Of a stretch of DNA of 64,000 nt, positions 51,032-57,563 are shown one piece after another. Under the pieces are notes generated by a model that worked only from the letters and a program-made list of their open reading frames with translations, had not been told where the DNA came from and made no database searches. Each line of letters starts with the position of its first letter. Positions within the stretch are counted from its first letter, which is position 1. Origin of the DNA: Octopus vulgaris (lineage: Eukaryota); assembly GCA_951406725.2 (NCBI GenBank), contig OX597820.1, forward strand, positions 108,748,001 to 108,812,000, read 5' to 3'. Position numbers and translations under genes: made by a program.

Positions 51032-51636
51032 ACATGCATACATACATATACACATAAACCGAGTAAAAAATTTCAGTTATCTCTCTCTTTCACACATTAC
51101 TCTCTCTGTCTCTTCACACACACTAACAGAAGCACTTCACTTACACAACATACTGTCTGTCTCCCACACTCCATCACACACACACACACATGTACATCAA
51201 TGAGTCCCATGCACGGTAACTTCAAAGGAACTTCCCTCGTCATACAATCGCTTTCTCTTAGTCTCTTTCGCTCTCATTACTTATGTAAAAAAATAAAAGT
51301 TTTTTCTATGTGTGTAAAGAGGAAGTGGGAGGCAGAGTGAAAGAATCACTCACTACAGTAAGTGAATTACTTTCATTTTATTCCTTGCCCACTGTGTGTG
51401 TGCGTTTGCGTGTGGTGTAAACCAGACTAAGAAAAGCATTTGACACACACACCAGAATGTGAGTTTTCTGTAAATTTTGCTTAATTGGAGTTTAAATTTA
51501 AAAACTGGACCTGGCATGACGCGATGCATTGTACTCTTAAAACTGCTAGGTAAATTGTAATTGAAGAAATCCTATATTGTAGATTTGTATAACTCCCAAA
51601 GGGAGGCAGATAAAATCTGCCTTTTATAATAAGAGA
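50155..51636 (-). mobile_element. Non-autonomous Helitron (1.48 kb) carrying a Pif1-like helicase fragment
   Basis: - strand A|TC start at 51636; 3' hairpin CCCGAGCAACGCCGGG then CTAG|T at 50155. ORF 50257..50751 has AILAPRN..LNS..GLP.H.LKLKV..PIMLIRNL..CNGTRL. Confidence 0.93.
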
Positions 51637-51744: not shown

Positions 51745-53287
51745 TCTCTTATTATAAAAGGCAGATTTTATCTGCCTCCCTTTGGGAGTTATACAAATCT
51801 ACAATATAGGATTTCTTTAATTACAATTTACCTTGCATTTTTAAGAGTACAATGCATTGCGTCATGCCAGGTCCAGTTTTTAAAATTTAAACTCCAATTA
51901 AGCAAAATTTACAGAAAACTCACATTCTTGTGTGTGTGTCAAATGCTTTTCTTAGTCTGGTTTACACCACACGCAAACGCACACACACAGTGGGCAACGA
52001 ATAAAATGAAAGTAAATAGCGACAGAGTGATTTGAGGAAGCCTAAACTGAAAGTAATTAAACCACTACTCAAAAAATAAAAAAACACAGCAAACAGAAAC
52101 AAATAAATACATAACCATTTAGTCCTCACACAATTTCTTCAATTAGAATTTACCTAAGATTTTTCAAAGTACTCCATTCGCTCATGCCATAATATATTTC
52201 TTTCAATTTCACCCCCAATTAAGACAAAATTCGAGAAAACTCAATATTTTAACATATCACTCCGAAAGCATTGATGTACATGTGTGCTTGCGAGAGTGTG
52301 TGTGTGTCATTCCTCACACACACGTATACACATACATATACAACTACATACACATACAACTACATACAAACACGTGTGTGTTTGTTATTAGTAAAAAAGG
52401 CGCAAAAACACAACTCACTTATCATTCCAACACATTTGCAAAGACACACGGAGGACAGAAAAGGTAAATTGGTTTTTATTTTACTCTGTATATATTTTAT
52501 TATATAATATTATATATAGATATATGTATACATAATTGCAGTATGAAACAGTGTTTATGTATAAACAGACGACACTTATATATAGTTACCAAGCCGCCCG
52601 AATTTACCTATTCATATTTAAATGAGAATATCAGAGCAAATCTCTTTAGTACATTCGTGAAAACACGTATTATACTTCGTAAACACTTCAACTACAGTTT
52701 TGTACAAAAATCGAAGTGTAATTTTAATTCCGTGAATTATGGGAGATTTTTTTCCGAAATTTGTTCCTATTGTGTTTTCAAAATTTGTAATTCTGACAAA
52801 AAATGGATACGAATTTCATTATATCAAGCAGCGAGTCAGAATTCGAAGGATTTTCTACTGAAGACCTTCATAAATCTAACTCTATGACTGAAAAAAAAAA
52901 AGCATCTTTATATAAGAGTGAAGTTGTGTGTCTGTCTCCTACGATTTCGATTCCTAACTACTCCCACATTTTGCGGTGCAGTTTAACCAAAAGCGGGTAT
53001 CTTATAGTCGTGATTCATATCGAGCCCTTCTGGGTATTAGCGTGCGTCTACGATGAGTCTACGATTTAAAAAAAATTTACCATCATATTTTTCCATTTTA
53101 ATGCATTTTTTTCGCTTTTATATAAGGGAAGTAACTCTCTAAAAATATCTACGATGTGTCAATGATTTAAAAAATATTTACCTTAATTTTTTTTCAATTT
53201 TTAATGCATTTTTTGGCTATAACTCTCTAAAAATGCTTATATAGTTATTTCCCTTACAACCCGAGCAACGCCGGGCGATACTGCTAG
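51745..53287 (+). mobile_element. Composite non-autonomous Helitron (contains a second TC-initiated unit 52905-53287)
   Basis: A|TCTCTTATTATAAAAGG start; hairpin plus CTAG end at 53287; internal A|TCTTTATATAAGAG at 52905. The 3' end matches the mini-Helitron at 17910-18292. Confidence 0.85.
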
Positions 53288-54770
53288 TCTCTTATTATAA
53301 AAGGCAGATTTTATCTGCCTCCCTTTGGGAGTTATACAAATCTACAATATAGGATTTCTTCAATTACAATTTACCTAGCAGTTTTGAGAGTACAATGCAT
53401 CGCGTCATGCCAGGTCCAGTTTTTAAAATTTAAACTCCAATTAAGCAAAATTTACAGAAAACTCACATTCTGGTGTGTGTGTCAAATGCTTTTCTTAGTC
53501 TGGTTTACAGCACACGCAAACGCACACACACAGTGGGCAAGGAATAAAATGAAAGTAATTCACTTACTGTAGTGAGTGATTCTTTCACTCTGCCTCCCAC
53601 TTCCTCTTTACACACATAGAAAAAACTTTTATTTTTTTACATAAGTAATGAGAGCGAAAGAGACTAAGAGAAAGCGATTGTATGACGAGGGAAGTTCCTT
53701 TGAAGTTACCGTGCATGGGACTCATTGATGTACATGTGTGTGTGTGTGTGTGTTTGATGGAGTGTGGGAGACAGACAGTATGTTGTGTAAGTGAAGTGCT
53801 TCTGTTAGTGTGTGTGAAGAGACAGAGAGAGTAATGTGTGAAAGAGAGAGATAACTGAAATTTTTTACTCGGTTTATGTGTATATCTATGTATGCATGTA
53901 TGTGTGTGTGTGTGTGTATGTATGTGTTTATATATAAAAGAAAGGTTGTGTGTCTGTCTACTCCGATTCAGATTCCTAACTACTCCCACATTTTGCGATG
54001 CAGTTTAACCAAAACCGGGTATCTTATAGTCGTGATTCATATCGAGCCCTTCTGGGTATTAGCGCGCGTCTACGATGAGTCTATGATTTTACAAATAATT
54101 TACCATCATTTTTTTCCATTTTAATGCATATTTTAAAAAATAAACGGAAGTAACTCTCAAACTTCACACCAATATGCGTGCTCATATGCGACGTAATATC
54201 ACATCACCAGCATTTCCTCACACCCTCCTTGCACTTGGCGAAGGCAAAATACCAGGGGATGAAAATGGTAATATTGCCATCGATTCCATTTGTACCATTG
54301 TTAAGACGCCTTCTGATCTCAGAGATGCAGTGTTCCCAGATTTACAAGCTAATTATCAGAATATGGATTGGATTGGCAAAAAGGCTATACTGGCCCCGAG
54401 GAATAAAACTGTTCACCATATTAATGATGAAATGCTAAAACTCATTCCTGGGGAAGTCGATGTATATCACTCTATCGATACAACTCCTGACCCAGAGGAC
54501 ATCATCAACTATCCAATAGAGGTACTCAATTCCTTTGAGCACCCCGGACTACCATCACACTTTCTCAAACTTAAAGTTAGTGCCCCTATAATGCTCATCA
54601 GAAATTTGGTTCCCCCAAAACAATGCAATGGCACACGTTTGGCGTTAAGTCCTTATCTCCCACCGTAAGCTTATTTCAATATTTGCCTGAATAATCATCA
54701 TAATTCAGTGCAATCATTAACAGTACTTTCAAGCAATTCAGCCCCGAGCAACGCCGGGCAATTCTGCTAG
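53288..54770 (+). mobile_element. Non-autonomous Helitron (inverted near-identical copy of 50155-51636)
   Basis: TC start directly after the previous CTAG; helicase ORF 54174..54668; hairpin plus CTAG at 54767-70. Confidence 0.93.
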
Positions 54771-55090
54771 TCTTATTATAAAAGGCAGATTTTATCTGCC
54801 TCCCTTTGGGAGTTATACAAATCTACAATATAGGATTTCTTCAATTACAATTTACCTGGCATTTTTAAGAGTACAATGCATCGCGTCATGCCAGGTCCAG
54901 TTTTTAAAATTTAAACTCCAATTAAGCAAAATTTACAGAAAACTCACATTCTGGTGTGTGTGTCAAATGCTTTTCTTAGTCTGGTTTACACCACACGCAA
55001 ACGCACACACACAGTGGGCAACGAATAAAATGAAACTAATTCACTTACTGTGGTGAGTGATTCTTTCACTCTGCCTCCCACTTCCATTTC
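54771..55090 (+). mobile_element. Helitron 5' fragment, third unit of the head-to-tail array
   Basis: TCTTATTATAAAAGGCAG.. immediately after CTAG; colinear with 53290-53605, then diverges. Confidence 0.85.
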
Positions 55091-55758
55091 CACACATACA
55101 CACGCAAATATATAAATAAAATTGTAAGCTAACGTGCGTGTGTGTGTGTGTGTGTGTGCGCGTGTGTGTGTGTGTGACGGTGCGCGCGTGTGTGTGTGTG
55201 TGTGCGTGTGCGTGAGTGTGTGACAGGAAAGTTTTTTTAGACGAATATAACACCTATATCCAAGTAGCAGAAAGATAAGACAGTAAGGTGTGATTTGAGG
55301 GAGATTTGGCTGCTATTTCTACCATGTCTAGCTGCCATGTAGAGGTCTCCCTCATAGGCTCATACATACATATATACATAGATAAGACAGTAAGGTGTGA
55401 TTTGGGGGAAATTTTGCTGCTATTTCTACCAGGTCTAGCTACCATGTAGAGGTCCCCCTCAATTCTTTTATTCTTCTGCTTTTTCCAGCCATTGCTCTGT
55501 GGCCATGCTGGGGCAATGCCTTGAAGAATTGTAGTTTAATGAATCAACTCCAGTTTTATTTTTGTAAGCATTGTATTTATTCTATCTGTTTCCTTTGTCA
55601 AACCACTAGGTGACAGGGATGTAAACAAACCAACATTCGTTGTCAAGCAGTGGTGGAGGACAATCACAAGCACAGACACGCACGCACACACACACATACA
55701 TGCATACACATATACACACATACATACATACATATATATATATGTGTGTATATATATA

Positions 55759-56032
55759 TTGCAGCGTGGAAGGTGTTTGTAAGCCATTTAAGAAACACAC
55801 AAAAACGGTTACATTCACTTCAACATTTAAATTTAATTTGCCAAAATATTTTCGTCGCTTTGATTTTCGCCGCTTTGAGACCGCGACCTGTTCACTGACA
55901 AAAATATCGTGCTAACAGGTCGCGGTCTCAAAGCGACGAAAATATTTTGACAAATTTAATTTAAATGTTGAAGTGAATCTAACGGTTTTTGTGTGTTTCT
56001 TAAATGGCTTATAAACACCTTCAACGCTGCAA
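55759..56032. repeat. Fold-back element (arms 55759-55892 and 55914-56032, 21-nt loop)
   Basis: The arms are reverse complements with a few substitutions; the left arm has a 15-bp tandem duplication. Confidence 0.92.
55837..55902 (-). ncRNA. Hammerhead-like motif with swapped G3-C8 core (GUGAACA)
   Basis: - strand: TTTGTCA-GTGAACA-G-GTCGC-(loop including the duplication)-GCGAC-GAAA-ATAT-TT-TGGCAAA. Stem I 7 bp, stem II 5 bp, palindromic AATATT stem III. Confidence 0.6.
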
Positions 56033-56179
56033 CTGTTATATTGGTAAAAACAGTAAGATAACAAAAGAAAGAAAGAGACCTATAATATTATGTAAATAGA
56101 AGAAATCTTTATATATAAAAGTCGTTCCAGCACACGATCTCAGATCAAGTCACTTGCTATGCAAGTACATCTCTGTATA

Positions 56180-57563
<1,384 letters not shown>

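Follow-up and report, generated by a model that had tools for sequence, protein, structure and literature searches.

The motif at 55837..55902 on the minus strand of the window, by which we mean the whole 64,000-nt stretch of Octopus vulgaris DNA analyzed here, is best explained as a minimal type I hammerhead that sits in the pLTR of a Penelope-like element (PLE) and carries a G3-C8 pair in its core. The hammerhead likely supports weak self-cleavage after U17, probably as a dimer, while the copy in the window is predicted to be inactive; we assign a probability of roughly 0.62 to this reading as a whole. The hammerhead ancestry of the motif is close to certain, and the sequence data moderately favor present-day activity in the family. 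That this is the first natural G3-C8 hammerhead, active in vivo and with its cleavage recorded as insertion junctions at the scissile bond, is in our estimate an even bet. What is new here is the core variant; the ribozyme and the element class are both known.

The motif and its copy in the window

A re-reading of the sequence found every part of the minimal type I hammerhead that the initial annotation had listed, all on the minus strand between 55902 and 55837, and the assignment draws upon this sequence together with the family state and homologues. The 5' strand of stem I (55902-55896) is followed by the core GTGAACA (55895-55889, with G3 at 55895 and C8 at 55890), an extra G (55888), the two strands of stem II (55887-55883 and 55858-55854), a GAAA (55853-55850), the palindrome AATATT of stem III (55850-55845), U17 (55844), and the 3' strand of stem I (55843-55837). 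The predicted cut lies between 55844 and 55843. Relative to C3 U4 G5 A6 N7 G8 A9, the core deviates at positions 3 and 8 and matches at the other five, and the 3:8 pair remains Watson-Crick. Stems I (7 bp) and II (5 bp), the G10.1-C11.1 pair, and the extra base after position 9 are likewise all present.

The window copy itself is compromised. It has a private 15-nt tandem duplication (55848..55878) that repeats GAAAA together with the 3' strand of stem II, and which is present in 0/29 of the remaining best-matching copies. The initial annotation had supposed that this duplication need not disrupt the fold, but it offers stem II a competing register, and folding calculations give the hammerhead stems of this copy a probability of ~0. 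Taken by itself, the 66-nt sequence shows no better folding than its shuffles (z -0.79). The motif also lies within an inverted repeat spanning 55759-56032. Its left arm (55759..55905, minus strand) is a 5'-truncated pLTR copy lacking the tail and containing the hammerhead and the start codon of the element (55787), while its right arm (55914..56037, plus strand) is an inverted pLTR copy that is truncated inside the core, beginning at A6, with its start codon at 56004. Together, this inverted pair is computed to form a hairpin of -180 kcal/mol that buries the motif. An Rfam search of the window returned no hammerhead match, which is uninformative because canonical-core relatives (L033, L350, and L354) were missed as well.

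The inverted pLTR pair is carried by a non-autonomous, Helitron-like composite repeat (54771..56217, plus strand) that is ~1.95 kb when whole, although its last ~380 nt are missing in the window copy. An 85-nt Helitron segment (56037-56122) displaces the rest of the pLTR tail, which holds the first codons of the ORF of the element, to 56123..56180 on the plus strand. Flanks of ~1.95 kb are common to the 30 best DNA matches in the 2.8-Gb genome, and at most of these 30 loci the carrier begins with TC and ends with a hairpin followed by CTAG, which we take to be the termini of a non-autonomous Helitron. In the window copy, the 5' end is present, the 3' end is missing, and one segment is rearranged. 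The Helitron-borne copies all descend from a single insertion and were left out of the 73-arm, 215-arm, and divergence counts given below. High copy number as proof of selection was rejected as partly false, since the 30 best DNA matches are Helitron-borne copies of one insertion. Further Helitron-like copies occur in the window at 818-1148, 51305-51634, 51747-52015, 53290-53620, and 52904-53287; these have the first 330 nt and the 3' end of the carrier in common, and some are tandem or inverted. Based upon the modeled folds, the window copy is very likely an inert passenger in this Helitron-like repeat.

The motif resides in the pLTRs of a young Penelope-like family

Outside of the Helitron carrier, the motif belongs to a young Penelope-like family, referred to here as family A, for which a single 32-mer has 6,107 exact matches in the genome (a second count gave 7,181 matches). 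The initial annotation had proposed a search for an autonomous PLE, and one was found, with an ORF encoding RT motifs, a CxxxCxxC linker, and, at its C terminus, a GIY-YIG domain, accompanied by motif-bearing pLTRs. The GIY-YIG domain (PF01541) scored 25.1 bits, which is above the cut-off, and a YVDD motif was read by eye, while a Pfam search of two RT-region fragments gave no RT match. The longest open frame has 1,025 codons; the linker reads CQSNCAVC at 896 of the L238 frame, and its cysteines are invariant in alignment A1. GTGAACA motifs accompany 25 of the top 30 loci in a tblastn search with this ORF, and the pLTR runs straight into the ORF start MAYKHLPRC. Full-length elements have the order pLTR-ORF-pLTR, with two motifs located 4,261 nt apart on the same strand and each ~90 nt upstream of a start codon; L240 is a locus with two pLTRs in direct orientation. 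This location in the pLTR bears out the assignment as the minimal type I hammerhead of a Penelope-like element. On C2, a direct repeat of 3.4 kb was also considered as a full element and proved to be a segmental repeat instead.

Among the non-Helitron copies, the flanks are independent and often consist of (TA)n, the head-to-head junctions vary, and the 3' end takes one of two positions ~55-60 nt from each other. Family A therefore combines direct pLTRs, inverted 5'-truncated copies, an optional tail, and (TA)n targets. At one locus (L298:1-1332), seven or more pLTR units without tails follow one another head to tail at a spacing of ~170-190 nt, with (TA)n in between, a retrozyme-like arrangement suited to dimer cleavage. 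At L345, L361, and L255, the loop II haplotypes differ between the two pLTR copies of a single insertion, pointing to two RNA templates or recombination. A distant and different PLE family is represented at L189:7047-8501 on the minus strand by a 484-codon RT + GIY-YIG frame.

Core positions 3 and 8 in family A and its homologues

We next compiled 215 family A arms, which were deduplicated by flanks and were partly pattern-selected. Position 3 is G in 209 and C in none of them, while position 8 is C in 188, G in 17, A in 6, and U in 4; GTGAACA was also read in 92 of the first 100 listed among 1,265 matches. Thus, the GUGAACA core is the family state rather than a chance match, and homologous families have a CUGANGA core with the same stems at the corresponding place. 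The initial annotation had proposed a test of whether G3 and C8 are fixed together; both are the family state, with G3.G8 in 17/215 arms. The remaining conserved elements, G12 A13 A14 A15.1 and U16.1-H17, are each at or above 98% per column, and loop II varies among subfamilies while the stems are constant. For intact copies, the computed probability of stem II is 0.83-1.0 and that of stem I is about 0.55-0.6. The core was also without variants in pLTR-covering contigs from four sequencing runs, which bear the labels of three organisms.

The G3.G8 arms fall on several haplotypes and include ORF-bearing copies (examples are L401-L430, L297, L301, L214, and L215), and the G3.G8 core has 204 exact matches in the genome. 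The C8G change recurs at a rate far exceeding that of C-to-G changes in other C columns. We considered G3.G8 as an ancestral intermediate and found this unsupported, as G8 copies are no more diverged overall (P 0.25); on two shared haplotypes they are less diverged than the C8 copies. Evidently, the element can transpose without the 3:8 pair.

A search with the CUGANGA pattern plus this stem II matched only 3 places in the genome, all of which belong to an older family, O, so such a pattern does miss family A, as the initial annotation had predicted. The sequences of stems I and II are identical in families O and A, and the 32 copies of family O are distributed among U3.G8 (14), C3.A8 (9), C3-G8 (6), and other states (3). 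A young sister family, B, groups with family A with 100/100 support in the tree, has 53% protein identity to it, and contains frames of up to 1,312 codons; the closest protein with a label, P0001, bears the name of Octopus vulgaris and is a member of this sister family. The family B core is C3-G8 with C at position 9, and its stem II has a compensatory change from G-C to A-U relative to family A, and stem II thus covaries. Every family B copy viewed (L243, L245, and L258-L286) reads CUGAUG-C with C at 9, with ~1,600 pattern matches, and an older B-like copy (L287) has A9. PLE relatives from metagenomes have sequence behind the ORF in 9/13 loci, and in these nine the motif states, as read by eye, were C3-G8 in 4, a degenerate C3-G8 in 1, U3-A8 in 2, and no motif in 2. 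The two U3-A8 lineages are on separate branches of the tree. Individual relatives also show U3-A8 with C9 (L349:2490-2540), U15.1-A16.1 (L348:4990-5040), and G at position 4 (L351:1710-1760), and the palindromic stem III is likewise found in L349, L350, L354, and L355. From the states of family A, of families B and O, and of the metagenome relatives, it follows that three different Watson-Crick pairs occupy 3:8 among homologues. The initial argument that the core reflects covariation and not decay is supported in part, in that G3/C8 is the family state and stem II has a compensatory change. The swap may have been selected for catalysis, but unpaired 3:8 states have spread in the lineage as well, and cleavage is indicated only indirectly.

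Probable transcript start and insertion 5' ends

The 5' ends were surveyed in 73 unselected non-Helitron arms. Nearly half (35/73) begin within 8 nt around AGATG, 20-27 nt upstream of G3, and only 3/73 extend >40 nt upstream. The whole core is kept in 60/73 arms. The 5' end falls between the core and the cut in 9/73, exactly at the cut in 2/73 (both from one insertion), and downstream of the cut in 2/73; a few ends (5/73) gather at the base of stem II. Among 30 terminal copies, 18 have a G before AGATG where the template has C, as read in 55/59 copies that continue upstream; this non-templated G was seen in L319, L361, L364, L365, L391, and others. It is likely a reverse-transcribed cap added at an initiator-like TCAGAT, to judge from the junction sequences. 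The stretch ACTAAC...TTTCTCAG directly before the motif resembles a splice acceptor, and an intron may end there, but the extra-G signature favors a transcription start and no splice joint was found among the run contigs.

Junction classes at the predicted cut were counted by hand from listings. In family A, 14 of the 30 (TA)n-flanked 5' ends within a 14-position interval fit an N1.1 start, with class counts of 9 for TGAC, 5 for TTGAC, 0 for TTTGAC, and 3 for ATAT microhomology; the resulting P value is 2e-5 against 2/14 positions and 0.027 against 4/14. In family B, 10/26 (TA)n-flanked 5' ends are at the predicted cut (P 4e-4). A downstream control interval had 0/16 ends at another TTG, 21 nt downstream, and 5/16 at an ATG. 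A further peak, as high as that at the cut (5 vs 5 among the ~31 loci listed), lies 7 nt downstream where stem I has its foot, and part of the signal may therefore stem from microhomology or from pausing of the RT at this stem. An upstream comparison of ~38 loci had a largest class of ~5 and used a looser pattern, which makes it only rough, and another listing contained 5 loci of one subfamily, too few for use. As a sequence signature, the junction peak suggests that a few percent of templates may be cleaved.

Alternative explanations

The same data can be read as a relic under relaxed selection, in which positions 3 and 8 drifted onto a complementary pair in a successful source and the peak arises from RT pausing or microhomology. 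The unpaired and wobble 3:8 states that are widespread in family O and make up 8% of family A would fit such a history, as would the A9C change in family B, the uncut majority of inserts, the peak 7 nt downstream, and the small end cluster at the foot of stem II. Relaxed selection does not readily account for U4, G5, A6, A9, GAAA, U16.1, and the two stems being retained where loop II varies from one subfamily to the next, nor for homologous families having three different Watson-Crick pairs at 3:8, nor for a peak that falls on the nucleotide predicted in both families A and B, whose downstream sequences are unlike, alongside an empty TTG control. We consider the relic unlikely, but by no means negligible. 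Counting against the favored reading are the uncut majority of inserts, the equally high peak 7 nt downstream, the G3.G8 arms, the mostly unpaired or wobble states of family O, the occurrence of the family B peak despite C9, and the more stable alternative dimer and published results given below.

Alternatively, the motif might serve at the 5' end without catalysis, as internal promoter DNA or as a protein-bound fold, with the pair swap being incidental. A position from +17 to +65, counted from the inferred transcription start, would suit this role, the excess of C8G above background could be a promoter effect, and an anole hammerhead was cleaved only with protein, according to the available part of PMC11167929. 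Since the relatives retain the hammerhead structure despite their changed sequence, and the motif has no clear promoter motif match, we judge such a role improbable. A chance hammerhead look-alike within a palindromic MITE was suggested by the long inverted repeat of the window copy, the missing Rfam match, and the weak folding z-score. The arms are copies of the pLTR that are joined head to head at variable points and end at either of two 3' positions, the pLTRs lie behind RT-GIY-YIG ORFs, and Rfam misses even canonical-core relatives; the full-length elements refute this explanation, and we leave it hardly any weight.

Proposed mechanism

In the favored reading, a pLTR hammerhead with weak cleavage, the fixed start ~22 nt before the core in short copies would correspond to a capped transcription start. 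Two pLTR hammerheads, from the same or from two transcripts, would pair via AAUAUU into stem III, with G3-C8 keeping the tertiary pair and permitting slow cleavage. The predicted 3' product of a cut after U17 begins UGACAAAU. Cleavage in the first pLTR would strip off the cap, ~57 nt ahead of the start codon, while a cut in the downstream pLTR would free a ~150-nt 3' piece with RT start sites that may sometimes be integrated. Most templates would presumably escape cutting. In a co-fold of two monomers, another dimer was computed at -32.7 kcal/mol and the dimeric hammerhead at -28.8 kcal/mol. The latter is 3.9 kcal/mol above the best co-fold, and cleavage may therefore require help from a protein, as it does in the anole element.

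Several published observations, taken here from the available portions of the cited papers, bear upon this scheme. Minimal PLE hammerheads cleave poorly in vitro and their pairing as dimers has been proposed (PMC4209133). For the anole element, cleavage occurred only with protein present, insertion did not need cleavage, and reads ending at the cleavage site were not seen (PMC11167929). Deep mutational scanning identified the G:C swap as the only rescuing double mutant in this region of the core (PMC9901934), and the swap partly restores cleavage of a Penelope hammerhead (PMC11167929); the expectation that the double swap can rescue activity in vitro agrees with both.

Relation to known elements and significance

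The pLTR hammerheads described in the accessible text of PMC4209133 resemble those of family A in their pLTR site, the extra base between 9 and 10.1, the G10.1-C11.1 pair, the short palindromic stem III, the head-to-head pairs on opposite strands, and the many solo copies, but only C3-G8 and U3-A8 covariants are reported there, whereas family A has G3-C8. Natural covariation from C3-G8 to U3-A8 is published (PMC3088659; PMC4209133, each as far as available) and is, like the change in family A, compensatory at 3:8; it consists of two transitions, while the G-C pair consists of two transversions. The identical C3G/G8C swap is known as a laboratory double mutant with partial rescue (PMC11167929, PMC9901934, PMC3884650, in the parts available), in contrast to its natural state in thousands of copies of family A. 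In the literature accessible to us, a natural G3-C8 core was not found and the swap appears in lab mutants only, though the supplements of PMC3088659 and PMC4209133 or Lunse et al. 2016 could hold one.

As for the element, its features liken it to the Neptune/Nematis-type C-terminal EN+ PLEs; the likeness is by features, and our tree holds no named reference element. The available text of PMC8557442 describes, as in family A, an RT followed by GIY-YIG, a CX2-5CxxC linker, partial tandem pLTRs, inverted 5'-truncated copies, an optional tail, and (TA)n targets. Inverted truncated copies and the optional tail of PLEs are also reported in the available part of PMC11167929. Family A differs in that DKG reads DKS and in having a tail of ~55-60 nt versus 30-40 in PMC8557442. 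The supplement of that paper lists Octopus Naiads, and of its three GTGAACAG matches the two listed are unrelated. Animal non-LTR retrozymes, as described in the accessible part of 10.64898/2026.07.22.740005, are short non-coding hammerhead units derived from PLE pLTRs and are similar to family A copies, except that they form head-to-tail arrays, whereas the family A copies are mostly solo or inverted, with the one array at L298.

The significance of the swapped core follows from the role of the 3:8 pair in the ribozyme. Textbooks present the C3-G8 pair as part of the active hammerhead, with the G-C swap as its laboratory proof, and the series of natural covariants would become complete with a large family that carries this swap in nature. 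The coexisting G3-C8, G3.G8, U3.G8, and C3.A8 lineages provide a natural series for a paired catalytic site crossing inactive states. CUGANGA and UUGANAA descriptors undercount hammerheads, and the peak of junctions found in families A and B opens a way to test in vivo cleavage for any PLE family from its genome alone. If the G3-C8 hammerhead is active in vivo and its cleavage is recorded at the insertion junctions, Penelope insertions could be read as a record of ribozyme activity, and Penelope families that appear to be 'hammerhead-less' may hide swapped cores.
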